Positions 1,480 through 62,870 of a stretch of DNA of 64,000 nucleotides are shown piece by piece. A program made the translations under genes and the position numbers. The stretch is from Chloroflexota bacterium (GTDB lineage: Bacteria; Chloroflexota; Dehalococcoidia; Lucifugimonadales; UBA3495). Every line of letters begins with the position of its first letter. The first letter of the stretch is position 1. The stretch covers positions 13,356 through 77,355 of the forward strand of contig JAQBVF010000018.1 of the NCBI GenBank assembly GCA_027623675.1, in the 5' to 3' direction. Under the pieces are notes generated by a model, which was given only the letters and a program-made list of their open reading frames with translations, was not told where the DNA came from and searched no databases.

Positions 1480-2910
1480 ATGACGACCGACAACATGGAA
1501 ACCGCCTATCAGGCGTTCTTAATATCTGATCCGGTGTTTGAGACCACCAAGCCTTTAGACGACCTGCGCCGCACCGATTACGGGCGTCTGGACCGGTTGG
1601 GGCAGGTGTTCCTCGACTACACCGGCGGCGGATTGTACGGGGATTCTCAGATACGTCGGTTCGCCGAATTGCTGGACGGCAGCGTGTTTGGGAATCCCCA
1701 TTCGGACAGCCCCGCGTCATCGGCGACCACTGAGTTGGTTGAGCGGGCCCGGTCCTTGGTCTTGGAGTATTTCAACTCCCCGCCTGGCGAGTACGTGGCC
1801 ATCTTCACGCCCAACGCCACTGGGGCCATCAAGCTGGTGGGCGAGGCATACCCATTCCAGCCTGGCGACCGGTACCTGCTGACTTTCGACAACCACAACT
1901 CGATCAATGGGGTACGAGAGTTCGCCAGGACCGCTGGGGGAGACGTTACCTACGTGCCGGTGCAGCCTCCCGACCTGCGCCTGGACGAAGCCCAGCTACG
2001 CGAACAACTGGACCACCCCAATGAGGGCGGCCACAACCTGTTCGCCTATCCCTCCCAGTCCAACTTCTCGGGCGTGCAGCATTCGATGGACTGGACCGCC
2101 TACGCCCAGGATAGGGGTTGGGACGTACTGCTGGACTGCGCGGCCTTCGCCCCGACCAACCGGCTGGACCTGAGTGAGACGCATCCCGACTTCGTGCCCC
2201 TGTCCTTCTACAAGATGTTCGGTTATCCCACGGGCGTGGGGTGCCTGTTGGCCCGGAAAAGCGCCCTGGCCAAGCTCATCAGGCCCTGGTTCGCCGGAGG
2301 CACCATCACCATCGCGTCGGTGCAGGCGGAAAGGCATTTCTTGGCCGAGGGCGAGCAGGCTTTCGAGGAAGGAACGCTGAACTACCTGAACATCCCCGCC
2401 GTGGAGATAGGCTTAAAACACCTTCAGTCGGTTGGAATCGAGATGATCCACGCCCGGGTGATGAGCCTGACATCCTGGCTGTTGTCGAACCTGCTTGAGC
2501 TGCGCCACAGCACCGGCGCGCCGGTGGTACGGGTCTACGGCCCGACCAACATGGAGGCCCGTGGGGGCACGCTGACGATCAACTTCTTTGACCCCAAAGA
2601 AGCCTTGATCGACCACCGCCGCATCGACGACCTGGCGGGGCGGGTTGGGATATCCCTGCGGACCGGCTGCTTCTGCAACCCGGGGGCGGGGGAGATGGCC
2701 CACGGCCTGACCGAGGAAGACATGGCCCTGGCGTTCGAGAACAGCGAACGCATGACCTTTGAGCAGTTCTTGGCTGTGCTGGAAGACCGGGAAGGCAAGA
2801 GCGCCGGGGCGGTCCGCATATCCATCGGACTGGCCTCCAACTTCGCCGACGTCTACCGGTTCTGGGAGTTCGCCCAGAGCTTCATCGACCAGGTGGCCGG
2901 AGAAGTCTGA
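1480..2910 (+). CDS. Aminotransferase class V PLP enzyme, similar to the NifS-like domain of molybdenum cofactor sulfurase
   Basis: FLDYTG, GNPHS, DNHNS, SFYKMFGYPTG (PLP Lys) and RTGCFCNPG motifs; no MOSC domain visible. Confidence 0.85.
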   Translation: MTTDNMETAYQAFLISDPVFETTKPLDDLRRTDYGRLDRLGQVFLDYTGGGLYGDSQIRRFAELLDGSVFGNPHSDSPASSATTELVERARSLVLEYFNSPPGEYVAIFTPNATGAIKLVGEAYPFQPGDRYLLTFDNHNSINGVREFARTAGGDVTYVPVQPPDLRLDEAQLREQLDHPNEGGHNLFAYPSQSNFSGVQHSMDWTAYAQDRGWDVLLDCAAFAPTNRLDLSETHPDFVPLSFYKMFGYPTGVGCLLARKSALAKLIRPWFAGGTITIASVQAERHFLAEGEQAFEEGTLNYLNIPAVEIGLKHLQSVGIEMIHARVMSLTSWLLSNLLELRHSTGAPVVRVYGPTNMEARGGTLTINFFDPKEALIDHRRIDDLAGRVGISLRTGCFCNPGAGEMAHGLTEEDMALAFENSERMTFEQFLAVLEDREGKSAGAVRISIGLASNFADVYRFWEFAQSFIDQVAGEV

Positions 2911-2979
2911 CCCAGGCCATATAGCCATATATCTGACGAAATATCTGACGAAACACACGAGAACATGGAGGAACCCCCG

Positions 2980-4740
2980 ATGCCCGTTAAAGGGACCACG
3001 CTAACCAGCCTAAGGCCGTTGATGCAGGGGCAGAACGGCATGGTAGTCGCCAGTCATCCCGCCGCCGCCATGGCCGGACTGGAAGTGCTGCGGAAGGGCG
3101 GCAACGCCATCGATGCCGGAGTGGCCGTTGGTTTGGCGTTGAACGTAGTGCACGTGGACGATTGCAGCTTCCTGGGCGTGGCCCCGACGGTGATCTACCT
3201 GGCCGGCCGCAAAGAGGTGACGACGATTGACGGGCTGGGCGTCTGGCCCCAGGCGGCATCGGTTGACTACTTCCGGAAGAACCACGGCGGCAAGATGCCG
3301 GCCGGCGTGCTCTCGTCCATAACTCCGGCGGCGGCCGATGCCTGGATCACGGCCCTGTCGCGGTTCGGCACCATGACCTTCGGCCAAGTGGCGTCCGCGG
3401 CGACGGAATTGGCCGGCAACGGGTTCCCCATGTTCCGCTATCTGGCGGACCGGTTCAAGACCGCCTACGACCAATACAACACCTACCCGACGACCGCCGA
3501 GATCTACCTGCCCGGCGGGCGCGCCCCCAAACGAGGGGAGATGTTTTACCAGAAGGACCTGGCGGCAACGTTAGCCCGGGTTGCCGAGATCGAAAGCTCC
3601 AACGCCGGTCAGGGCCGGGAAGCGGCGCTACAGGCGGCCAGAGACTACATCTACACCGGCGAGTTGGGTAAGAAGATCGCGGCCTACAACCAGGAGATGG
3701 GCGGTCTGCTCACCGAAGATGACCTGGCCCGGTATCACGTGCAGGTGGCCCCGCCGGTAACCGTGAATTACAGAGGTTACGACGTCTACAGCACCGGGCC
3801 GTGGGGGCAGGGCCCCACGTTCCCCCAGGCGCTGAAGATACTAGAGGGCTTCGACCTGGCTGGCATGGGCCACAACTCGGCCCAGTACATCCACACGGTC
3901 AACCAGGCCCTGAATCTGGCGTTCGCCGACCGGGAACAGTACACCGGCGACCCGGATTTCGTGGACGTTCCCATCAAGGAGATGCTCTCCGAGGAATATC
4001 TGTCCCAGCGCCGGTCCATGATCGACCCGGACCTGGCCTGGCCCGGCACTCCTCCGGCGGGCGACCCCCGCGGCCTCAAGGCGGCGTTGAACGGCGGCCC
4101 AACTTCGCCCCGCGACGCGGCGGAGCCGGTTGGGACGGCCGGAGTCAGCGGCGGCGGGACATCTTATTTCGCCGTGATCGACCGCGACGGCAACATCTTT
4201 TCCAGCACGCCCAGCGAAGGGACCAAGAACGGTGGGCCGATAATCCCGGGCACCGGCCTGGCCTTCTCGCTGCGGGGCACCCAGTCGAAGTTGGACGAGA
4301 ACCATGCGGCGTCCCTCCAACCGGGCAAGCGGCCCAGGCTCACTCCCGCGCCGGCCCTGGTGCTGCGGGACGGCGAGCCGGTGATGGCGCTGGGCGCGCA
4401 CGGCGGCGACCACATCCCCCAGGGCACCCTCCAATTGCTGTTGAACGTGCTGGAATTCGGACTGGACCCCCAGGAGGCCGTGGAGGAACCCCGGTTCTAC
4501 AGCTATAACTTCCCAAGCTCCAACTGGGCATCCAAGTACGAGCCTGGAATGTTGCGCCTGGAGGGCCGGATCCCAGGCGAGGTTGCCGACAGCCTGCGGC
4601 AGAAGGGCCACACCATCGAGCAATACCCCGACTGGTGGGAGGGTTCGGCGTTATACGGGGTTATCACCCGCAACCCGGAGACCAAGGTGCTACAAGGGGG
4701 CGCCGACCCCCGGAGCGAAGCCTATGCGGTTGGATATTAG
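2980..4740 (+). CDS. Gamma-glutamyltransferase family protein
   Basis: GMVVASHPAA, GGNAIDA, nucleophile Thr in GGTSYFAVIDRDGN, PGKRP, GGADPR; GGAGGA RBS favours ATG at 2980 over 2965. Confidence 0.9.
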   Translation: MPVKGTTLTSLRPLMQGQNGMVVASHPAAAMAGLEVLRKGGNAIDAGVAVGLALNVVHVDDCSFLGVAPTVIYLAGRKEVTTIDGLGVWPQAASVDYFRKNHGGKMPAGVLSSITPAAADAWITALSRFGTMTFGQVASAATELAGNGFPMFRYLADRFKTAYDQYNTYPTTAEIYLPGGRAPKRGEMFYQKDLAATLARVAEIESSNAGQGREAALQAARDYIYTGELGKKIAAYNQEMGGLLTEDDLARYHVQVAPPVTVNYRGYDVYSTGPWGQGPTFPQALKILEGFDLAGMGHNSAQYIHTVNQALNLAFADREQYTGDPDFVDVPIKEMLSEEYLSQRRSMIDPDLAWPGTPPAGDPRGLKAALNGGPTSPRDAAEPVGTAGVSGGGTSYFAVIDRDGNIFSSTPSEGTKNGGPIIPGTGLAFSLRGTQSKLDENHAASLQPGKRPRLTPAPALVLRDGEPVMALGAHGGDHIPQGTLQLLLNVLEFGLDPQEAVEEPRFYSYNFPSSNWASKYEPGMLRLEGRIPGEVADSLRQKGHTIEQYPDWWEGSALYGVITRNPETKVLQGGADPRSEAYAVGY

Positions 4741-13011: not shown

Positions 13012-14145
13012 CTAGTCCTGTAGCGCGGGAATCACTTCTTCGCCCATGAGTTTTATGGACCGCATGGTGTCCTCGTGGGATAGCGGGCCGCCCTGGGCTT
13101 CCAGCAGCAAGGAGCCGATGCCAAGTTCTTCTTTGATGTGGCGGAGCTTCTTGATAACGGTCTCCGGACTGCCGACCACCAGGTGATAATTATCCTGGAG
13201 TTCTTCATAGGACATCTCGTTCATTGGCTTCTGACGGCGTGCGGCGTTGGCGGCGACACCGGCTTGGGAGAAGTAACCCGGCGGGGCCCAGTACTCTCTC
13301 GGTCCCTTTAGCGGGTGGCCCATGCGCCACATGAAGGCTTTGCCCGATTCCTGAGCTTTCTCGTCGGTCTCGTTAACGTGGGCGCAGATCATGAAGGCGA
13401 ACTTGTCCGGGCCTGCCTGCCAGCCCTGCTGGGCTGCCTGCTCCCGGTAGCTGCCGAACAATTGTTTAGCCCTGTTTATCTCGGTCAAGAACGCGGCGTA
13501 GGTGTAGCGGTGCTTTACCGCCCATTCCACCGTCTCCGGGCTGCCGGTGCCTGGCACCCAGGCGGGGGGATGGGGCTTTTGCACGGGCACCATCCAAGGG
13601 TTCACCGCCCGGTATTGGTAGTGTTTGCCCTCCCAGCGGAACGGGCCGGGGGTGGTCCACGTCTTGATGATCAGGTCGTGGCACTCTTCGAACCGCTCCC
13701 GGTTGTAGACCGGATTGGTGTTGTTGGCCCAGCTCTCCACCCCGATGCCCCGGACAAACCCGGAGACGATGCGGCCGCCGGATATGACGTCCAGCATTGC
13801 GATCTCTTCGGCCAGTCTTGGCGGGTTGTCGGACGTGGGCAGCATATTCCCCAGCATCAAGATCTTCGCTTTTGACGTCAGACGGGCCAGGATGCCGCCG
13901 GTGATGTTCACTTCAACGTCCATACACGATGGTGTGTTGTGGTGCTCGTTGATCATCAGCCCCTGGAACCCGGCCTCCTCGGCGTACTGGAACTCGTCCA
14001 GGTAGCGCTTGAACAGGTCGGTGGCCTTGTTGGGGTCGAAGTAGCTATTGGGAAAGGTCAGCCGCAGAGAGGGCCACTGCTCGGCGAGTTCATCGTCGAT
14101 GTAGTGGTATGGCATCTCGGTGAAGTAATAAACGTCCAGACTCAA
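13012..14145 (-). CDS. LLM-class flavin-dependent oxidoreductase
   Basis: GLMINEHHNT, LAEEIAMLDVISGGR, GFVRG, QKPHPP, VGSPETV. Confidence 0.9.
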   Translation of the reverse strand: MSLDVYYFTEMPYHYIDDELAEQWPSLRLTFPNSYFDPNKATDLFKRYLDEFQYAEEAGFQGLMINEHHNTPSCMDVEVNITGGILARLTSKAKILMLGNMLPTSDNPPRLAEEIAMLDVISGGRIVSGFVRGIGVESWANNTNPVYNRERFEECHDLIIKTWTTPGPFRWEGKHYQYRAVNPWMVPVQKPHPPAWVPGTGSPETVEWAVKHRYTYAAFLTEINRAKQLFGSYREQAAQQGWQAGPDKFAFMICAHVNETDEKAQESGKAFMWRMGHPLKGPREYWAPPGYFSQAGVAANAARRQKPMNEMSYEELQDNYHLVVGSPETVIKKLRHIKEELGIGSLLLEAQGGPLSHEDTMRSIKLMGEEVIPALQD

Positions 14146-15130: not shown

Positions 15131-16351
15131 CTATATCGCCTGGGCCTGTTTCTGGAACGGGTCGGTCAGTTCCAACTCGGCGCCGATCTCGCGGATGGCG
15201 GGCAGCACCTCTTGGCCCATGAGTTCCAGGCAGCGCATGGTATCGGCGTGGGTGGTGTCGCCGTCGTTGGTCCAGACGCCCAGGATGCCGGGGCGGATGA
15301 CCGACAGGGTTTCGCGCAGCTTCCTTACCACCGTCTCCGGGCTGCCCACGATCCAGCGGTTGGAGGCCAGTATCTGGTCGTAGGTCGCGGTCTCTAGGCC
15401 CAGGCCAAGGAAGGGGTCCTTGCGGATGCGGCCCAGGTATTTGGCTACCTTGGGATCATTGCGGTTACCGCCGTAGCCTACCGGCAGCATGTAGTCCTTG
15501 GGCATCGGCACCCGCCCCACGCCAACGTTACCGGTCAAGAAGCCTTTGGCCGACTCGTAGGCCTTCTCGTCGGTGTCCTGCACGTGGATGCGGCACAGGT
15601 AGCCGAAATTCTCCGGGCCGGGTTCGTAACCGGACTCTCGGGCGGCTTCAGTATAGACATCTATCATGTCCTGGGTGCCCTGGGGGTCGGTCTCCAGATA
15701 GATGTATGGATAGCGCCGCTCGGCGGCCCAGACCAGGGTTTGGGGGCTCCCCAGGCCGGGGATCCACACCGGTGGATGGGGCTTCTGCAGCGGTGTCTGA
15801 AAGGGGTTGACCACGCGGAAGTGGTAGTGTTTGCCCTCCCAGCGGAAGGGACCGGGCGTGGTCCAAGTCTTGATGATCAGGTCGTGGGCCTCCTCGAACC
15901 GTTCCCGGTTGTGGAGGGGGTTCACGTTGGCGGCCAAACTCTCCACGCCAGTGCCGCGAACGAAGCCGGAGACGACCCGTCCGTTGGAGATCATGTCGAT
16001 CTCGGCGATCTCCTCGGCCACACGCAGGGGATTCTCGAAAGTCGGCAGGGGATTGCCCATCAGGACGATCTTCGGTTTCTTGGTGTTTCGGGCCAGGATG
16101 GCGGCTTCCAGGTTCATGGTTGCGCCCAGACAGGTGGGTGTATTGTGGTGCTCATTGAGCATCAGGCCGTCGAAACCAACCTCTTCGCAATACTCGTATT
16201 CGTCCAGGTACTCGTTGTACTGGCGGGCGCCGATCTGAGGGTCGAAGTTGCTGTTGGAAAATGTCAGCCGCACCGCCCCGTTGGGGCTGTTTCTCACGGC
16301 ATCTTCGGTGTAGCTGGTATAGGCCCGCTCGGTGAACCGCATCAAGAACAT
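15131..16351 (-). CDS. LLM-class flavin-dependent oxidoreductase (paralog of 13012-14145)
   Basis: GLMLNEHHNT, AEEIAEIDMISNGR; shares DLIIKTWTTPGPFRWEGKHY with the downstream paralog. Confidence 0.9.
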   Translation of the reverse strand: MFLMRFTERAYTSYTEDAVRNSPNGAVRLTFSNSNFDPQIGARQYNEYLDEYEYCEEVGFDGLMLNEHHNTPTCLGATMNLEAAILARNTKKPKIVLMGNPLPTFENPLRVAEEIAEIDMISNGRVVSGFVRGTGVESLAANVNPLHNRERFEEAHDLIIKTWTTPGPFRWEGKHYHFRVVNPFQTPLQKPHPPVWIPGLGSPQTLVWAAERRYPYIYLETDPQGTQDMIDVYTEAARESGYEPGPENFGYLCRIHVQDTDEKAYESAKGFLTGNVGVGRVPMPKDYMLPVGYGGNRNDPKVAKYLGRIRKDPFLGLGLETATYDQILASNRWIVGSPETVVRKLRETLSVIRPGILGVWTNDGDTTHADTMRCLELMGQEVLPAIREIGAELELTDPFQKQAQAI

Positions 16352-40558: not shown

Positions 40559-40807
40559 AGGGCCTCCGCGAGAAGGGGTGCGTGGTCCGGTTATCCGGAT
40601 TGGCTGGCCGGGCGGCCTGAATTATATCACCGGCCGATCTGGCCTTCGCACGGATCGGGGCGGGGCCATTGTCAGTAGCAAGGGTGGCTGCCGTTCCGGT
40701 GGCGGGAGGGCTGGCGGCGTGGCTGGCTGTGCGGTTTGTTGTGTGGTTTAATGATGCGAGCTTCAGATAAGAAGAATCAAAATCTCCGATGTTATGAGAA
40801 GTCACAG

Positions 40808-41848
40808 ATGGAATTTGCCCTTTTCTCACACGTACCCTGGCCCGAAGGGACCAACCCCAAGCAGGTCTACGATGACATCACCGAAGAGTTTCAATTAGGC
40901 GAAGAACTGGGATTCAAAAGCGCCTGGATGGCGGAGCACCATTTTACCCGCTACGGACTAGGCGCCGCGCCGATGGTGCTTGCCAGCAATATCCTGGCTA
41001 AGACCACAACCTTGCGGTTGGGATTCGCCGTTCTGGTATCGCCGCTCCATCTTCCGGCCAGATTGGCTGAAGAGGTTGCGACCTTGGATGTGCTGAGCGG
41101 AGGGCGGGTTGACGTGGGGTTCGGCCGGGGCGCCGCCGGGTCCGAGTACAACGTGGCCAATGTCCCCGGAGAAGAGAGCCAATCCCGGTTTCAAGAGTCC
41201 ATCACCATGGTTGAAGGTCTCTGGACGAACAGGGACTACAGTTTTGAAGGGCAGCACTACAAGATAACCAGGGCCAACCTGGTCCCGCAGCCGGTGCAGC
41301 AACCCCATCCGCCGATCTACATCGCCGCCACCCGCACCAAGGCGACCCAGGAATTCGTCGCCGGAACGGGGCACCCCCTGATCATCGGAGTGGTCCTGGA
41401 TACGGTGGACGCCCTGAACCTATGTCACACCATGGTCGGCCTGGCCAAGTCCAAGGGCAACAACATGACAATGGACCAGATCCCCTTCTTCCGCTATTTC
41501 TATGTGGCTGAGACGGAGGAGCAGGCCAAGGCCGACACTAAGGCGGCTCTGGACTGGAACATAGACATGATCCAGTGGCGGCGCACGTTTGATGTTGGCA
41601 GTGAGGTCTGGGAGAAGATGGAAGACTTCCGAAGAACCCGCACGGAGCTTCCGCCCAGCTACGAGTACCTGTACGAGAACCGGGCCTTCATCGGCGACCC
41701 GGACCAAATCACCGCCAAGATCAAAGCACTGCAGGATGAGGGTATCAACCTCTTTGGCTGCAACTTCTCATTTGGCGGTATGCCTCAGGACAAGGTGCTC
41801 AGGTCCATGAACCTATTCGCCAAAGAGGTCATGCCCGCGTTCAAGTAG
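40808..41848 (+). CDS. LLM-class flavin-dependent oxidoreductase
   Basis: AWMAEHHF, LAEEVATLDVLSGGR, GFGRG, PVQQPHPP; ATG at 40808. Confidence 0.9.
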   Translation: MEFALFSHVPWPEGTNPKQVYDDITEEFQLGEELGFKSAWMAEHHFTRYGLGAAPMVLASNILAKTTTLRLGFAVLVSPLHLPARLAEEVATLDVLSGGRVDVGFGRGAAGSEYNVANVPGEESQSRFQESITMVEGLWTNRDYSFEGQHYKITRANLVPQPVQQPHPPIYIAATRTKATQEFVAGTGHPLIIGVVLDTVDALNLCHTMVGLAKSKGNNMTMDQIPFFRYFYVAETEEQAKADTKAALDWNIDMIQWRRTFDVGSEVWEKMEDFRRTRTELPPSYEYLYENRAFIGDPDQITAKIKALQDEGINLFGCNFSFGGMPQDKVLRSMNLFAKEVMPAFK

Positions 41849-55788: not shown

Positions 55789-55818
55789 AAAACGGAGCGC
55801 TGAAGAGCGCTCCGTTTT
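55789..55818. terminator. Bidirectional intrinsic terminator
   Basis: AAAACGGAGCGCT-GAAG-AGCGCTCCGTTTT between convergent genes. Confidence 0.88.
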
Positions 55819-55845: not shown

Positions 55846-57879
55846 TTACGGGCGGATGAGCACGCGAGTGGTGCCATCAGGGTCGGTCCTCTTGGTCATG
55901 ACCTCGTGTCCGGCCTTCTCGGCCCATAGCGAGACATCGTAGATGTTCAAGGCGTCGGCCAGGATGGCTTCCACGAAGGAATCCTTGTCCATGTCCACCT
56001 GGCGGGTCAGGGCGGCGATGACGCCGGCGCAACTCTTGCCCCGGCCGTCGATGACGATCCAGCCGCCGGAGCCAGTCACCGGTATCTCCTCGCCGTCGTA
56101 GACGTCAACCTCGCCGCTCTTGCGGAGGTCCAGTTGGCGCTTGAATTCAGCCACTGCCTCCCAGGCCACGGCCCGGTCGCGTTCGCCGTTGCCGCAGACC
56201 GCCCCCCGCACGCCGACGATGTCGGGGTTGATGCGGGCCAGTTCGTCCAGGTCGGCAATCTTCAAGTGGCCGGACAGAGCCGTGCTCATGCCCAGTTCCT
56301 TGCCCTTGAGCACGATGTCTTTCAGTACCGGCTCGGACATGAAATCGAACAGGTTGCGGCCGTCCTTGGTCAGGGTGTCGATGAGGAACCCGTCACACTC
56401 GCCGTCCTTGGCCAGCTCAACCATGCACATGGGGTCGAGGCCGTTCTCGAACATCTCGTTATCGGCGAAGACCGACCCGACGAGTTTGGTGTTGAAACCT
56501 TCCAGGGCCATCCGTGACTCTCTGAGGACCTCAACCGCCTGGTCGTAGTTGGCTTCTTGAAATCCAACTTTCACCGACGTGGCGTCCATCACGGCGGCGG
56601 CGTACACGGCCATGGCCACTGTGCCGGGCTGGTTGGGAACCACGCCCAGTGTGACGCTGACATGCTTCTCCACCGGCATGATTCCCCTGACGGCTTTAAC
56701 GATGTTGGGGTGGCCGGAACCCACCAGTGCTTCTTGCAGGTTCTTGACGTCCACCACGTCGGCGCCACCCTGCTCGGCCTCCATCGCCTCTTCCATATTC
56801 TGGACGCTGACCATGAGCAGCATGCCCGAGGCGAAGTTATTGTTTCCGTCGAGCCATGATCCGCGGGACCGGGTGGGTTGGGCGTGGATCACGGGAGGCG
56901 CTGGGACGGGCTTTAGGGGCTGTAGTTCTTCTCTCAATTCAGACTTCTCCACTGGTGATAGATCAAATAATGGTGGCCGTACCGACCCGGCCGACATGCC
57001 CATGAGCTCGCCCCAATGCTTGACCATGGAGACGGGCAGAGCGCCGTTGAACTTGGTCTGGGTCCTTGTCCACCAGGTATCGGACAGTTCCTTCAGGCGG
57101 CGCAGTTTGTTATCGTAAAAGGTCTCGTCCAGGTCGCCTCGGCAGGCCCGGTCGATCCACTGGACGTAGTTGTTTACGCCCGGCACGTCGAAGCGCCAGT
57201 CGGACGTGTTGGCGAACATGGCCTGTTGTTGGATGCCCAGTTCCTGGCCCTTGAAGAATATCCACTCGTCGGGGGTGCTGATGACGTGGTCTTTACCGAG
57301 GGAAAGATGGGTTTCGATGGATATCTGCTGATTGAAGCTGGCCTCTTTCACTCCAACAACGTTGGGGATGCTGCAGACCCGGCCTAGGCCGTAGGGGCTC
57401 ATGATGATGCCGAACTGGGGCGAGTTGTAGAACATTATCGCCAGATTGGTGTTGTCCGCCAGTATCCGCACGAACTCAACCACCTGGTCCTCGGTCTTGG
57501 TGGCCATATAGGACGGTGCGACGATCAGAAGGTCAAAACCCGTGGCCTCGGCATGTTGGGCCAGCGAGACCATGTCAGAAGCTGAGGTGTGGGTGACGTG
57601 GGCGCCGATGGGCCATTTGCCGGCGGCTTCTTCGGCGGTGGCGTCCATAACCTGGATACGCTCATCGTAGGTCAGGCTCCAGAACTCCCCCATGTTCCAG
57701 GTGCAGCCGGCGCCGGTGGTGCCAAGGCTACGAACGTGGCGTATGTTCCGCTTGATCCCGTCAACGTCGATGCGGTTGTCGGGAGTGAAGGGAGTGATGA
57801 GGGTGGTCCATTGTCCCTTGATGGTTTCCCATGCCCAATCCTGGGCCTCGTGTTTCTTATAGCTCGCCATTGGCTCCAT
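55846..57879 (-). CDS. Three-domain fusion: DapA/NAL-family aldolase + MfnB (4-HFC-P synthase, DUF556)-like + TusA-like domain
   Basis: ITPF, NMGEF, FYNSP, VGVKEAS; then MLLMVS..NMEEA..GGADVVDVKN, KVG, DTLTKDG, PDIVGVRGAVC; then IDGRGKSC...W....GHEV. Confidence 0.85.
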   Translation of the reverse strand: MEPMASYKKHEAQDWAWETIKGQWTTLITPFTPDNRIDVDGIKRNIRHVRSLGTTGAGCTWNMGEFWSLTYDERIQVMDATAEEAAGKWPIGAHVTHTSASDMVSLAQHAEATGFDLLIVAPSYMATKTEDQVVEFVRILADNTNLAIMFYNSPQFGIIMSPYGLGRVCSIPNVVGVKEASFNQQISIETHLSLGKDHVISTPDEWIFFKGQELGIQQQAMFANTSDWRFDVPGVNNYVQWIDRACRGDLDETFYDNKLRRLKELSDTWWTRTQTKFNGALPVSMVKHWGELMGMSAGSVRPPLFDLSPVEKSELREELQPLKPVPAPPVIHAQPTRSRGSWLDGNNNFASGMLLMVSVQNMEEAMEAEQGGADVVDVKNLQEALVGSGHPNIVKAVRGIMPVEKHVSVTLGVVPNQPGTVAMAVYAAAVMDATSVKVGFQEANYDQAVEVLRESRMALEGFNTKLVGSVFADNEMFENGLDPMCMVELAKDGECDGFLIDTLTKDGRNLFDFMSEPVLKDIVLKGKELGMSTALSGHLKIADLDELARINPDIVGVRGAVCGNGERDRAVAWEAVAEFKRQLDLRKSGEVDVYDGEEIPVTGSGGWIVIDGRGKSCAGVIAALTRQVDMDKDSFVEAILADALNIYDVSLWAEKAGHEVMTKRTDPDGTTRVLIRP

Positions 57880-57959: not shown

Positions 57960-59933
57960 CTAATCCTCGTCGCCATATTGCTCCTTTAGAGAGTCTACCA
58001 CTGCCGGGTCGGCCAGGGTTGTGGTGTCGCCCAAGGCCCGGCCCTCCGCCACGTCCCGCAGCAGCCGGCGCATGATCTTGCCGCTGCGGGTCTTGGGCAG
58101 TTCGGCGGCGAAGATGATGTCGTCGGGGCGGGCCATGGCGCCGATCTTGCCGGCCACATGGGCCTTCAATTCGGTGATGACGTCTTCGGACATGCTCACG
58201 GTGTCTTTGAGGGTAACAAATGCGACCACCGCCTGGCCCTTGATCTCGTGGGCCTTGCCGATGCAGGCGGCCTCGGCGACCTTGGGGTTGTCCACCAAGG
58301 CGCTTTCGACCTCCATGGTGCCGATTCGGTGGCCGGAGACGTTGATCACATCGTCCACCCGGCCCAGGAGCCAGAAATCGCCGTCCTCGTCAAGCTTGGC
58401 GCCGTCGGCGGTGAAGTAGATATCCGGATAGCGCGACCAATATTGCTCCACGTAGCGCTCTTCGTCTCCGTAGATGGTGCGGAGCATGGACGGCCAGGGT
58501 TTCTTGATCGTGAGATAACCGCCGCCTCCCGGTCCCACCGAGTTGCCTTGGTCGTCCAGGATCGCAGCCTCGATCCCGGGGAATGCCCGGGTGGCCGAGC
58601 CGGGTTTGAGGGTGGTTATGCCCGGCAGCGGCGCGATAAGGATGCTGCCGGTCTCGGTTTGCCACCAGGTGTCCACCACCGGGCAATTTCCGCCGCCGAT
58701 GTTCTCGTGGTACCACATCCAGGCCTCGGGGTTGATGGGCTCGCCCACCGAGCCGAGGAGACGCAGGCTGGTTAGGTCGTGCTTCTGGGGATAGCTTTCG
58801 CCCCAGCGCATGAACGTGCGGATGGCCGTGGGCGCCGTGTAGAGGATACTCACGCCATACTTGGCGACGATTTCCCAGAACCGGTCCCGGTCGGGATAAT
58901 CGGGCGAGCCTTCGTACATCACCGACGTGGCGCCGTTGGCCAGCGGGCCGTAGACGATGTAGCTGTGTCCGGTCACCCATCCGATGTCGGCGGTGCACCA
59001 ATAGGTGTCGTTCTCTTTGATGTCGAAGATCCACTTGAAGGTGGCATAGGTACCCAGGAGATAGCCGGCGGAGGTATGGACGATACCCTTGGGCTTGCCG
59101 GTGGTGCCGCTGGTGTAGAGCAGGTACAGCATGTCCTCGCTGTCCATCTTCTCCGGTTCGCAGGTCAGGGGCTGGCCCTTCATAAGGTCGTGCCACCAGA
59201 TGTCGCGGCCTTCCACCATCTTGTCGTCGGCGGTCTCGGTCCGGCGCAGCACCACAACCTTCTCGATGCTGGGAGCGCCGCCTTCTTTGCCGTCCTCCGT
59301 CAGCAGGGAATCGTCGGAGTTCTGTTTCAGCGGGACGACGCCGCCGCGCCGATAACCGCCGTCGGCGGTTATTAATATCTTGGACTCGGAGTCGTTGATG
59401 CGGTCGCGCAGGGACTCGGCGCTGAACCCGCCGAATACCACGCTGTGGGCGGCGCCGATACGGGCGCAGGCAAGCATGGCGATGGGGAGCTCTGGCACCA
59501 TGGGCAGGTAGATGGTGACCCGGTCGCCCTTCTTAACGCCCAGGCTCTTCAGGCCGTTGGCGAACTGGCAGACCTCGCGGTAGAGGTCGAAGTAGGTGTA
59601 GACCCGGCGGTCGCCCGGCTCGCCCTCCCAGATGATGGCTGCCTTGTTGCGGCGGCTGCCGGTTAGATGCCGGTCCAAGCAGTTGTAGGCGACATTGAGC
59701 TGGCCGCCAAGGAACCACTGGGCGTGGGGCGGCTTCCAGTCCAGCACTTGGTCCCATTTCTTGAACCAGTCGAGCTCTTCAGCAAACTTTGCCCAGAATG
59801 ATTCGGGGTCGCGTGCCGCTCCTTCGTAAACATTGGGGTCGGAGATGTTAGCCTGGGCCCGGAACGCCTCGGCAGGAGGAAATAATCGATCCTCTTGGAG
59901 CAAGGCATCGAATCTTCCGGAATCTTCTACCAC
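57960..59933 (-). CDS. acs: Acetate-CoA ligase
   Basis: [54 protein letters not shown]. Confidence 0.96.
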
Positions 59934-61712: not shown

Positions 61713-62870
61713 ATGGCCCTTCAATTCGGCGTATTCGACCACATCGAGCCTGTTCCAGGTTTGGGACTACAAGAAACCTACAACCTGCGCATGGAACAGA
61801 TAGAGGTGCTGGATAAAGCCGGCTATTATGCCTACCACCTGGCTGAGCATCACACTCCGGCGGTACACAGTCTAGCTCCCTCTCAGAACGTGTTCCTGGC
61901 CGCGGTGTCACAGCGTACCAGCAACATCCGGTTCGGGCCGGGAATCTGCGTGCTGCCACTGCATCACCCCGTCCAGCTCATAGAGGAATACTGCATGCTG
62001 GACCATCTGAGCGGCGGACGCCTGGAGATCGGTGTTGGCCGGGGCGGCGTATTCGAAGCCTTCTTCTGGGGCCAGGACGCGGATGTGGAATCCAACTACG
62101 CCCGCTACCGCGAGACGCTGAGCGCCGTGCAAAACGGTTTGAGCCACGATGAGCTGACCCACCACGGTGAATTTTACAACTTCGACGAGTTACCCATGCG
62201 CCTGCGGCCGCTTCAGGAACCCATGCCGCCTTTCTGGTACATGCGTAACGTGGAAACGGCGGCGATGGACGGTATGAACACCATCATCGTGGGTGGTCTG
62301 GATAGCTTTGAAGCCAACGTTAGACGCTACCACCGAGAGTGGGATAAGCATCAGGGTGTTGGGGCGCTCACGGCCCAGGGCACCGAGCCCAAGATTGGTT
62401 TGGTCGTCCACCTGCTGCTGGCGGACACCGATGAAGAAGCGATGGCGCAGGCCAAGCCGGCCTGGGACCATTACAGTTGGAACCTGGGAACGCCCAGGAG
62501 ACTGGAGGCCGAAAGGCGGGGTCTGACCCAGTTTCAGGGCGAAGGGATGAACCCCCGGCCTGCAGCCATTCCTGCCAGGGAGATCCCCCAGGAAGAAAGG
62601 CGCGACCTTGCCGCCACGCTCGAGGATGAGGAGCGGATCGAGCGGAGGCAGAACCTGCGAGGCAGGGTGGAAAACGGCCCGGGCGGCGGCGCCGGGTTTG
62701 GCTCGGTGGCTGGCGCGCCGGAAACCATCAGGAAGTACATGGACGAATACGTGGCGACCGGCGCCAACTACTTCGTGGCCGCATTTCAGTGGGGCGACCT
62801 AAGCAACGAACAAGCCATGCGGTCCATAGAGTTGTTCACCAACGAGGTCATGCCCCATTACGCGGGGTAG
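61713..62870 (+). CDS. LLM-class flavin-dependent oxidoreductase
   Basis: YHLAEHHT, LDHLSGGRLEIGVGRG, SIELFTNEVMP. Confidence 0.9.
   Translation: MALQFGVFDHIEPVPGLGLQETYNLRMEQIEVLDKAGYYAYHLAEHHTPAVHSLAPSQNVFLAAVSQRTSNIRFGPGICVLPLHHPVQLIEEYCMLDHLSGGRLEIGVGRGGVFEAFFWGQDADVESNYARYRETLSAVQNGLSHDELTHHGEFYNFDELPMRLRPLQEPMPPFWYMRNVETAAMDGMNTIIVGGLDSFEANVRRYHREWDKHQGVGALTAQGTEPKIGLVVHLLLADTDEEAMAQAKPAWDHYSWNLGTPRRLEAERRGLTQFQGEGMNPRPAAIPAREIPQEERRDLAATLEDEERIERRQNLRGRVENGPGGGAGFGSVAGAPETIRKYMDEYVATGANYFVAAFQWGDLSNEQAMRSIELFTNEVMPHYAG

Follow-up and report, generated by a model that had tools for sequence, protein, structure and literature searches.

A DHDPS-like barrel, an MfnB-like barrel and a TusA-like domain joined in one protein of SAR202-type Dehalococcoidia

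The window analysed here, a 64,000-nucleotide stretch of a Dehalococcoidia genome, contains an open reading frame whose product, P0001, combines a DHDPS-like barrel, an MfnB-like barrel and a TusA-like domain. Two questions arise from this: whether the three parts truly belong to one protein, and what an MfnB-family enzyme in such company would make. An earlier note on the same DNA had described one uninterrupted frame with three domains and had suggested an enzyme of furan or sulfur-heterocycle biosynthesis; its remark that it knew of no described protein with this architecture agrees with full-text literature searches, in which no paper on an aldolase-MfnB-TusA fusion was found.

The gene and its protein

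The gene is divided as follows.

55846..57879, minus strand: the whole open reading frame of P0001 (DHDPS-like, MfnB-like, TusA-like), 677 amino acids and a stop codon, ATG start, from the ORF list and translation
56920..57819, minus strand: DHDPS-family (beta/alpha)8 barrel, residues 21-320 (PF00701, E 2.4e-27, profile 3-287 of 289)
56836..56892, minus strand: Pro-rich disordered linker 1, residues 330-348 (pLDDT <50)
56131..56823, minus strand: MfnB-family barrel, residues 353-583 (PF04476, E 4.3e-56, residues 355-579, profile 1-227 of 228)
56065..56094, minus strand: disordered linker 2, residues 596-605 (pLDDT <50)
55849..56061, minus strand: TusA-fold domain, residues 607-677, beta-alpha-beta-alpha-beta-beta (PF01206 at 609-676, E 5.5e-4; AF2 models)
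55789..55818, minus strand: intrinsic-terminator-like hairpin, a stem of 13 bp and then a T run, 28 nt past the stop codon

A Pfam scan of P0001 returned three families, DHDPS (PF00701), 4HFCP_synth (PF04476) and TusA (PF01206), and no stop codon interrupts the translated frame. P0001 is thus three folded domains in one polypeptide with two disordered linkers between them, as the earlier note had read it, and the motifs listed there (WNMGE, FYNSP, VGVKEAS, DVKN, KVG, DTLTKDG and DGRGKSC) are all present. That note had also seen no ribosome-binding site before the internal ATG, and no Shine-Dalgarno-like run was found 5' of the internal ATGs at residues 353 and 356. At the other end of the frame, homologues start near M-A-x-Y and a GGAG lies just 1 nt 5' of the first ATG, so translation may start at Met4 rather than Met1.

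The gene fusion is genuine. Two sequencing runs of a single study, possibly the source samples themselves, gave contigs that span the whole reading frame and the domain junction with no differences or indels. A look-up of RNA records listed none that carries the stretch. Moreover, 67 other genome loci carry the full-length fusion (67-91% identity to P0001), and all 120 of the best database homologues listed have 671-740 residues and at least 99% coverage, which is far beyond chance. Linker 1 differs in length between homologues, the fused reading frames having 671-746 codons' worth of residues. Eight residues (D377, K379, K437, D501, K505, Y151, K178 and C617) are invariant in the 68 full-length sequences; together with the full-length identity, this suggests that the fusion is under purifying selection.

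In deeper relatives the same parts are found as two adjacent genes, first the DHDPS-like gene and then MfnB-TusA (for example P0124, 331 aa, and P0125, 330 aa). A stop separates the halves in seven loci (L038, L039, L043, L044, L045, L046 and L073), and in L038, L039 and L043-L046 it is at the site that matches linker 1. The existence of both fused and split forms points to functional coupling rather than an artefact. Homologues that are always split, which the earlier note had named as grounds for doubt, are not what was found: split forms do occur, but of the 21 carriers among 301 sampled Dehalococcoidia genomes 14 are fused and 7 split. The distribution within the class is patchy, and the family is highly conserved, single-copy and restricted to a lineage of ocean SAR202-type bacteria. 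Five metagenome loci (L091, L092 and L094-L096) have a closely similar DHDPS-like gene (E ~1e-171 to the domain profile) with no MfnB-TusA gene in the flanking DNA available, which at L092 reaches 8 kb on each side, so the two genes are not always adjacent. When metagenomes were scanned with distant DHDPS-like proteins, no MfnB or TusA neighbour turned up at any locus beyond the SAR202-like clade.

The two barrels

The MfnB-like barrel scores 190.7 bits against PF04476, for which the gathering score is 22.4. It resembles MfnB of M. jannaschii, MJ1099 (PDB 4RC1, 4U9P), the synthase that turns two glyceraldehyde-3-phosphate into 4-(hydroxymethyl)-2-furancarboxaldehyde phosphate (4-HFC-P), over the full length of the barrel (E 8e-45 and 38% identity to 4rc1), and Foldseek superposes it on MfnB structures with TMt 0.92-0.95 and rmsd 1.1-1.7 Å. 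Retained are D377 and K379 (56743-56751; DVKN), K437 (KVG), D501 and K505 (DTLTKDG), R558 and C562. The first five align with D25, K27, K85, D151 and K155 of MJ1099, and the R217 loop is kept as well. D25, K27, K85 and D151 are catalytic residues of MJ1099, with roles reportedly described by Wang et al. in 2015. The motifs DVKN, KVG and DTxxKDG, which the earlier note had found preserved, thus carry residues that are invariant in 68/68 sequences. K155 and R217 are named in one article (PMC11365854).

The simplest reading would be that this is an ordinary MfnB, making 4-HFC-P for methanofuran or methylofuran and merely fused to unrelated domains. The full-length Pfam match, the closeness to MJ1099 and the retention of all five residues that are reportedly catalytic in MJ1099 are what such an enzyme should have. 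However, the barrel falls below both NCBIfam MfnB equivalog cut-offs (NF002573, 192.1 against 341 bits; NF002575, 183.6 against 304 bits). Three near-invariant residues of single-domain MfnB are also lost: V413 (56641-56643) occupies the site of MJ1099 D61, which is Asp in 59/60 single-domain MfnB representatives, A384 that of Gly32 (Gly in 59/60) and L381 that of Pro29 (Pro in 54/60). V413, A384 and L381 are found in 19/19 clade members, along with further clade-specific changes relative to single-domain MfnB (Tyr to Phe, Ser to His and Ala to Ser). In a quick tree the MfnB part of the fusion is a clade of its own (SH-aLRT 100), and its stem is long, at 1.77 changes per site. It appears, therefore, to be a distinct and divergent subfamily of MfnB, in keeping with the motif differences pointed out in the earlier note, and its fusion to two other domains sets it apart from the usual single-domain form. 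An ESM Atlas look-up with the MfnB-TusA half returned MfnB-family clusters and nothing else.

The genomes give the same answer. The methanofuran-dependent formyltransferase FTR and MCH of the H4MPT route were not found in the genome that holds the fusion (G000, 91% complete), control genomes being positive, nor in any of five further carrier genomes (92-98% complete), and a Pfam scan of 49 open reading frames of the window found no methanofuran or H4MPT family. The earlier note had likewise seen no other such gene in the window. The fusion does not serve methanofuran synthesis, and the ordinary-MfnB explanation is close to refuted. No earlier case was found in which an enzyme of the MfnB family is clearly dissociated from methanofuran.

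The DHDPS-like barrel scores 95.8 bits against PF00701 (gathering score 22.1), and Foldseek gives TMt 0.83-0.87 to DHDPS, MosA, YagE and NAL. With the class I aldolases of this family (DapA, NanA, YagE, KdgD and MosA) it shares the barrel fold, the Schiff-base lysine, Lys178 (57346-57348; VGVKEAS), and the tyrosine of Y-N-x-P, Tyr151 (57427-57429; FYNSP), both invariant among the 68 fused sequences. Tyr124, aligned with DapA Tyr107, is present as well. The GTTGE loop of the family is replaced by T-W-N-M-G-E-F-W (W61 at 57697-57699), so that both halves of the earlier description, a kept Lys and Tyr and an altered loop, stand. In an alignment to solved DHDPS, no Arg of P0001 falls at the aspartate semialdehyde-binding Arg of DapA, and the carboxylate-binding pattern G-[ST]-[ST]-G-E (Thr44/Thr45 in DapA) is broken by N62 and M63 (G/S/P and M/Y/G/A in relatives). 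Since the Thr positions of the DHDPS catalytic triad are not kept, the barrel may catalyse something other than a pyruvate aldolase reaction. P0001 is far under the family-model cut-offs applied, those of DapA, NanA and KdgD: TIGR00674 (82 against 206 bits), TIGR00683 (51.7 against 382), TIGR03249 (70.1 against 374) and PRK03620 (92.9 against 278). Unlike the DHDPS/NAL family it has an extra N-terminal helix and an inserted D-W-x-F-D-x-P segment, and these recur in a small stand-alone subfamily (P0135, P0136 and P0138, 36-39% identity) and in P0147 (31%). No NahE-like hydratase-aldolase structure or model was among the listed sequence and fold matches to this barrel.

The altered loop bears on one proposal for how the barrels might be coupled, in which the DHDPS-like domain would work ahead of the MfnB-like barrel: cleaving a 2-keto-3-deoxy sugar acid phosphate in the manner of a KD(P)G aldolase, it would supply that barrel with glyceraldehyde-3-phosphate. 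KD(P)G aldolases do belong to the family, the NCBIfam model of the archaeal KDG/KDPG aldolase matches weakly (E 4.8e-11), and the DHDPS-like part comes first in fused and split forms alike. But it is the [ST]-[ST]-G-E loop for the carboxylate of a 2-oxo acid that has been replaced, glyceraldehyde-3-phosphate is a central metabolite that needs no channelling, and the conserved neighbours include neither a sugar-acid dehydratase nor a sugar-acid kinase. We consider this proposal quite improbable.

The TusA-like domain and the question of sulfur

PF01206 matches the C-terminal domain with 20.2 bits, under the gathering score of 28.6, and a precomputed match exists for 3/120 of the best homologues listed. 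The AF2 model (pLDDT 89) shows a two-layer beta-alpha-beta-alpha-beta-beta fold. Its closest VIA-align matches are SirA-like 3hz7 (Z 12.4), YeeD (Z 11.2) and E. coli TusA (Z 10.6), and the top six rows are all SirA-like, YeeD or TusA (Z 10.3-12.4, rmsd 1.1-2.5 Å, 70-73 residues). Cys617 (56029-56031), part of the motif D-G-R-G-K-x-C-A-G, sits at the start of helix 1 and aligns with the Cys of 1pav (Ta1170); it is invariant in 68/68 fused sequences and in 17/17 TusA-like domains, fused and split. CPxP is absent from these 17 domains, 15 of which have C-A-G-[VI] and two C-A-S-I instead. A TusA-like domain with a Cys but without CPxP, as the earlier note had it, is thus confirmed. Fold and helix-1 Cys are common to P0001 and the TusA, SirA-like and YeeD (TsuB) carriers (PDB 3LVJ, 1DCJ, 3HZ7, 8K1R); the carriers, however, are free proteins with C-P-x-P, whereas in P0001 the counterpart is the C-terminal domain of an enzyme and reads C-A-G-V. 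A search with the 78-residue domain found 44 short proteins (64-93% identity), mostly fragments on short contigs and all from Dehalococcoidia where named; it reached no distant or archaeal stand-alone relatives.

Such a domain need not handle sulfur. It might be a structural, regulatory or redox-sensing lid, which would be compatible with the other readings. The missing CPxP and the sub-threshold Pfam score would fit, as would the non-sulfur roles found in the same fold class (Alba, IF3-C and Smr, Z up to 9.4 against the model). Nor do the conserved neighbours include a gene for a cysteine desulfurase, a rhodanese or DsrE. On the other side, the best structural matches are all to TusA, SirA and YeeD, above the rest, and the Cys is invariant and in the canonical position. 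A role apart from sulfur is, on balance, rather unlikely. When the three domains were submitted as separate chains to complex prediction, the scores for a partner of the TusA-like domain were 0.16 and 0.12 (mark 0.32).

If sulfur is involved, there is precedent for what it might do. ThiG (thiazole synthase) and BexX (2-thiosugar synthase) are TIM barrels in which a ketone derived from a sugar phosphate is bound to a lysine as an imine and receives sulfur from a protein-bound donor. With their ThiS-type carriers they offer an analogy for the formation of a C-S bond by an MfnB-like barrel and TusA, although they belong to other barrel families than P0001 and their carrier presents a C-terminal thiocarboxylate, not a cysteine persulfide. 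By this analogy the MfnB-like barrel and the tethered Cys might form a sulfur-inserting heterocycle synthase, the cysteine-persulfide counterpart of ThiG and BexX, giving a thiophene or thio-furan aldehyde phosphate from triose phosphates that the DHDPS-like barrel would extend. This scheme is unlikely; if true, one of the most abundant groups of ocean bacteria would be making a sulfur heterocycle not yet described, as a cofactor or a quinone-pathway accessory. The earlier note's own ideas, that the aldolase may channel a non-standard substrate to the MfnB-like barrel and that the Cys may donate sulfur to a thiophene or thio-furan, gained no support from the analysis, although they are compatible with it. 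The fusion is not a substitute thiazole, PLP or quinolinate synthase: the genome has ThiG (352 bits), PdxS (364), NadA (316) and NadC, and the presence of the first three implies that the fusion does not replace them.

Neighbourhood and possible function

No neighbour is common to all synteny groups. A link to the menaquinone tail operon occurs in the split lineages only. The pair could accordingly be imagined to act in the biosynthesis or modification of menaquinone, the respiratory quinone, or of another prenylated (hetero)aromatic acid via UbiA, UbiD and UbiX. In six of the seven split-type genome loci ubiD lies within 8 kb. L043 and L044 have the co-directional order pair, ubiD, ubiA, ubiX, with ubiD starting ~70 nt after the pair; L046 has ubiD-ubiA-ubiX in convergent orientation; and ubiD is 6.7 kb downstream in L038, L039 and L073. 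UbiD is encoded in 19/21 carriers (the two without it are 55-57% complete) as against 80/301 genomes overall, and a UbiD-like neighbour occurs even beside a distant stand-alone DHDPS-like relative (L087). Yet the split loci are themselves relatives and cannot count as six independent observations, and ubiD, ubiA, ubiX and ubiE are in the flanks of 0/68 fused loci. G000 carries its ubiD-ubiA-ubiX-ubiE operon on another contig, together with two genes of the MqnA/MqnD family (PF02621). With these its futalosine route looks complete without the fusion, and replacement of the early futalosine steps was rejected on the same grounds. In family f11 UbiD is present in 17/17 genomes and the pair in none, which implies that menaquinone can be made without the pair. 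A part in quinone metabolism thus seems improbable.

The reading to which we incline, though tentatively and with more doubt than confidence, is that P0001 is a self-contained pathway enzyme of SAR202-type Dehalococcoidia which makes a heterocyclic metabolite, possibly containing sulfur, from triose phosphates, and not methanofuran. We infer the order of the barrels, their substrates and any transfer of sulfur. In a first step the MfnB-like barrel would condense triose phosphates, by means of K379, K505, D377, K437 and D501, to a C6 heterocyclic aldehyde phosphate. This could be 4-HFC-P or, as the clade has lost the canonical Asp (V413) and changed at other sites, a modified ring. The DHDPS-like barrel would then form an imine through Lys178 and Tyr151 and elaborate the aldehyde of the first step, a role proposed because aldehydes are the normal second substrate of the DHDPS family. 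The change in the carboxylate-binding loop of this barrel speaks against a donor bound as pyruvate is in DapA or NanA. Finally, the flexibly tethered TusA-like domain would bring Cys617 to one of the barrels, where it would either donate persulfide sulfur, in analogy to the sulfur carriers of ThiG and BexX, or hold the aldehyde covalently. The absence of any neighbour shared by all lineages makes central metabolites the probable substrates, and what is made may be a small metabolite or cofactor used elsewhere.

Two Schiff-base barrels joined to a sulfur-carrier fold point to an undescribed small molecule derived from central metabolites. Much of the prokaryotic population of the deep ocean consists of SAR202 bacteria, whose chemistry matters for the fate of recalcitrant dissolved organic matter and of organosulfur compounds.

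One further gene lies close to the fusion in the window.

57960..59933, minus strand: acetate-CoA ligase gene (AcsA), upstream of the fusion and co-directional (Pfam; NCBIfam TIGR02188, 988 bits, cut-off 725)

An acyl-CoA synthetase, a Mo-hydroxylase and UbiD/X make up the context of Hmf-like furan catabolism, and neighbours of this kind were considered for the fusion. The idea was weakened on each count: AcsA is bona fide by its score, CoxM/S/L-type genes adjoin the fusion in one synteny group only, and the UbiD is the menaquinone-operon orthologue. The gap between AcsA and the fusion is 80 nt and has no terminator-like site, so co-transcription of the two genes is possible. AcsA, which is regarded as context, is directly upstream of the fusion in 21 of the 68 loci and within six genes of it in 34.

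Architecture of the fused and split forms

The fusion gene and its parts are as follows.

55846-57879, minus strand: fusion gene, a single uninterrupted frame of 677 codons that opens with ATG
Residues 21-320: DHDPS domain (PF00701), Pfam E 2.4e-27
Residues 355-579: 4-HFC-P synthase/MfnB domain (PF04476), Pfam E 4.3e-56, profile covered whole
Residues 609-676: TusA domain (PF01206), Pfam E 5.5e-4, 20.2 bits, gathering score of 28.6 not reached
Residues 330-348 and 596-605: disordered linkers 1 and 2 of the AlphaFold2 model
55789-55818: strong terminator-like hairpin after the fusion stop codon

The HMM scan thus recovered the three domains described in the earlier note, DHDPS and MfnB above the gathering score and TusA below it, and all the motifs quoted there were found in the translation. 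The AlphaFold2 model (mean pLDDT 89.9, alignment of 79 rows) likewise showed three confidently folded domains joined by the two linkers. As, at the start of the gene (57868-57879), the annotated ATG has GGAG just 1 nt upstream and homologues begin near the second Met (M-A-x-Y), the true start may be Met4 at 57870.

A stop codon hidden at the junction had been named as grounds for doubting the fusion. Contigs from two runs of one study, whose samples may be those that yielded this DNA, read through the ORF and domain junction with zero differences or indels. The codons for Met353 and Met356 lack a preceding Shine-Dalgarno-like run, in agreement with the absence of an internal RBS noted earlier.

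A search over 5.8 billion proteins gave 501 relatives among 7998 scored candidates. The best 120 were each 671-740 aa long, with at least 99% query coverage and 70-90% identity; precomputed PF00701 and PF04476 were present in all of these 120, and PF01206 in three. In a species-representative genome collection relatives were encoded on 107 stretches, from which 79 loci were retained. Their titles were Dehalococcoidia, SAR202 or Chloroflexota, with one exception, a Planctomycetota-labelled bin (L014, JADFOJ010000064.1) whose fusion is 87% identical to the query; this contig is probably mis-binned. Full-length fused ORFs occurred at 67 genome loci which, with the window, give 68 proteins of 67-91% identity to the query (median 76%). 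The genome holding the window, G000, has a single copy.

Among 1.84 billion representatives at 50% clustering, only one other full-length fused protein was found (P0122, 699 aa, 65%), together with the split representatives P0124 (331 aa, DHDPS-like) and P0125 (330 aa, MfnB and TusA). At the seven most divergent genome loci (L038, L039, L043-L046 and L073; 56-66% identity) a stop ends the DHDPS-like part, and the second ORF, MfnB-TusA, starts M-L-L-M-V-S-V, matching the start of MJ1099, the MfnB of M. jannaschii. As the same parts occur both fused and as adjacent genes, they form a Rosetta-stone pair, and the linker, which varies in length (fused ORFs are 671-746 aa), is the point where the two genes were joined. 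Of 301 Dehalococcoidia genomes sampled, 32 matched at E <=1e-20, 11 of them merely at DapA level; the 21 carriers comprised 14 with the fused form and 7 with a split or interrupted one. The gene is therefore a true fusion, and its homologues are not always split.

The individual domains are already known. A full-text literature search found no paper on the DHDPS-MfnB-TusA architecture, in keeping with the earlier note; nor did the literature searched describe how they are combined here, the divergent MfnB clade or the separation of that clade from methanofuran.

A divergent MfnB-like domain and the roles excluded for it

The MfnB-like domain aligned over its whole length with MJ1099 (4rc1; E 8e-45), and its model resembled MfnB structures closely (TMt 0.92-0.95, rmsd 1.1-1.7 Å). 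The counterparts of D25, K27, K85, D151, K155 and the capping-loop Arg were invariant in all 68 fused proteins, so the catalytic residues are kept as had been claimed. The MfnB catalytic residues other than K155 and R217 were reportedly found to be essential by Wang and co-workers in 2015. K155 and R217 are themselves named as substrate-binding or catalytic in PMC11365854.

The domain scored 192 and 184 bits against the NCBIfam MfnB models, below both cut-offs (341 and 304), and is not an MfnB equivalog. When 19 sampled clade members were compared with 60 single-domain MfnB representatives, Val replaced the Asp found in 59 of the 60 (Asp61 in MJ1099), Ala replaced Gly (59/60) and Leu replaced Pro (54/60), each in 19/19 clade members; further changes in the clade were Tyr to Phe, Ser to His and Ala to Ser. 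The motif divergence noted earlier was confirmed, and in a quick maximum-likelihood tree the clade formed a single branch (SH-aLRT 100, stem 1.77 changes/site) apart from all 60 single-domain rows. Because the catalytic set is intact, this barrel would still carry out the two-lysine condensation of triose phosphates; as the near-universal Asp and adjacent loop are changed, it probably yields an altered ring or takes an altered partner.

Plain methanofuran synthesis is scarcely credible. Neither methanofuran-dependent formyltransferase (PF01913) nor methenyl-H4MPT cyclohydrolase (PF02289) turned up in G000, which is 91% complete, or in a further five carriers of 92-98% completeness, four of which are single contigs; the methanogen controls were positive each time, and this role was rejected. 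Of the 49 window ORFs, none falls in a methanofuran or H4MPT family, extending the earlier observation on context. Substitution for thiazole, PLP or quinolinate synthase was also rejected, since ThiG, PdxS, NadA and NadC are all in the genome, as was substitution for the early futalosine steps, G000 having two MqnA/MqnD-family genes elsewhere (contigs C27 and C39).

The DHDPS-like and TusA-like domains

The first barrel has the fold of DHDPS, MosA, YagE and NAL (TMt 0.83-0.87). K178 (the Schiff-base Lys), Y151 (the Tyr within F-Y-N-S-P) and Tyr124 do not vary, which upholds the reported retention of Lys and Tyr. In the DHDPS family the G-T-T-G-E loop binds the 2-oxo-acid carboxylate. The altered loop was also seen: in the fusion it reads T-W-N-M-G-E-F-W, the two Thr positions varying among relatives (N/G/S/P and M/Y/G/A), and all the specific NCBIfam DHDPS-family models scored far under cut-off. 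The change suggests a mode of donor binding unlike that of pyruvate. This domain would form an imine through K178 and act on an aldehyde, since aldehydes are the usual second substrate of the family and exactly the product of MfnB chemistry. The reverse order, with the aldolase domain acting first to supply GA3P, seems very unlikely.

A small stand-alone subfamily (P0135, P0136 and P0138, 36-39% identity; P0147, 31%) has both the W-x-x-G-E-[FY]-W loop and the D-W-x-F-D-x-P insert of the fusion. No MfnB or TusA neighbour was found at metagenome loci of this subfamily or of more distant relatives. The gene for P0136, the closest stand-alone relative (37% to the query; L086:1-3036, L087:353-7402), is preceded by genes for a flavoprotein of SdhA/NadB type and a 2Fe-2S protein; after it come genes for two proteins that Pfam does not match, for several solute-binding proteins and for a divergent UbiD-like protein of 553 aa. 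Distant relatives (about 32-34% to P0136; L104-L130) lie in a recurring cluster with genes for 3-hydroxyanthranilate 3,4-dioxygenase, an Asp-dehydrogenase-like protein, aldehyde dehydrogenase, a LysR regulator, kynureninase, an FAD monooxygenase and TRAP transporters. We know of no assigned role for a DHDPS-like member of such a kynurenine/3-HAA-type cluster.

The C-terminal domain, modelled both within the whole protein and by itself (residues 600-677, pLDDT 89.1), had a beta-alpha-beta-alpha-beta-beta topology each time. The best whole-domain Foldseek matches were E. coli TusA, YeeD and a SirA-like protein (TM 0.72-0.79, with weak E values of 5e-3 to 3.5e-2). VIA-align placed SirA-like 3hz7 first (Z 12.4, rmsd 1.1 Å over 70 residues), then YeeD (Z 11.2 and 11.1) and TusA (Z 10.6, 10.6 and 10.3), ahead of Alba and IF3-C-like folds (Z 9.4 and lower). 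Cys617, at the N-terminus of helix 1 and aligned with the Ta1170 (1pav) Cys, is invariant in 68/68 fused proteins and in 17/17 domains including split forms; the CPxP of TusA is replaced by C-A-G-[VI] or C-A-S-I. The proposed TusA-like domain with a conserved Cys and no CPxP is therefore borne out. The tethered Cys may donate persulfide sulfur, for which ThiG and BexX with their carrier proteins are precedents, or carry the aldehyde as a thiohemiacetal. A non-sulfur function for this domain, judged separately from the other readings, is rather unlikely.

Genomic neighbours and the proposed pathway

No neighbour was common to all lineages among the genome loci, which suggests that the substrates come from central metabolism and that the product is used elsewhere. 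In group A, to which the window belongs, a co-directional gene for a genuine acetate-CoA ligase lies directly upstream at 21 of 68 loci (within six genes at 34), with a convergent spermidine synthase gene downstream. Group B has genes for a ThiD/PdxK-like kinase, IleRS and Fpg upstream and co-directional CoxM/CoxS/CoxL-type molybdenum hydroxylase genes downstream, CoxM-like being immediately downstream at 16/68. We tentatively favour a pathway in which MfnB-type condensation, a DHDPS-like imine step and the TusA Cys would act together on central metabolites to make a product used elsewhere.

The split loci raise an unlikely alternative, a quinone-linked role. In six of the seven, ubiD lies inside the 8-kb flank, in three arrangements: the order pair, ubiD, ubiA, ubiX, all co-directional (L043, L044); convergent with the pair (L046); and 6.7 kb away (L038, L039, L073). 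UbiD also occurs in 19 of the 21 carriers, the other two being just 55-57% complete, against 80 of the 301 genomes overall. A strictly menaquinone role is opposed by the fused loci, none of which (0/68) has ubiD, ubiA, ubiX or ubiE nearby; G000 carries these genes on another contig:

G000:C39:61600-65500 (L085:5639-9458): compact ubiD-ubiA-ubiX-ubiE (menaquinone tail) operon, adjoining prfA and prmC

Likewise, all 17 genomes of one Dehalococcoidia family (f11) have UbiD and none has the pair, and five metagenome loci (L091, L092, L094, L095, L096) carry a near-identical DHDPS-like gene (profile E ~1e-171) with neither an MfnB nor a TusA match in the sequence covered, 8 kb each side for L092. 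In this last lineage, whose flanks otherwise resemble the split-type loci L098-L100, the second gene has either moved or been lost.

L043 also has a LarC-type nickel-insertion gene (2584-3762) about 4 kb upstream of the pair and a eukaryotic-type carbonic anhydrase gene downstream with ubiD, ubiA and ubiX. The window itself contains five luciferase-like (LLM) monooxygenase genes (108-1271, 13012-14145, 15131-16351, 40736-41848 and 61713-62870), which fit the flavin-monooxygenase expansions reported for SAR202.
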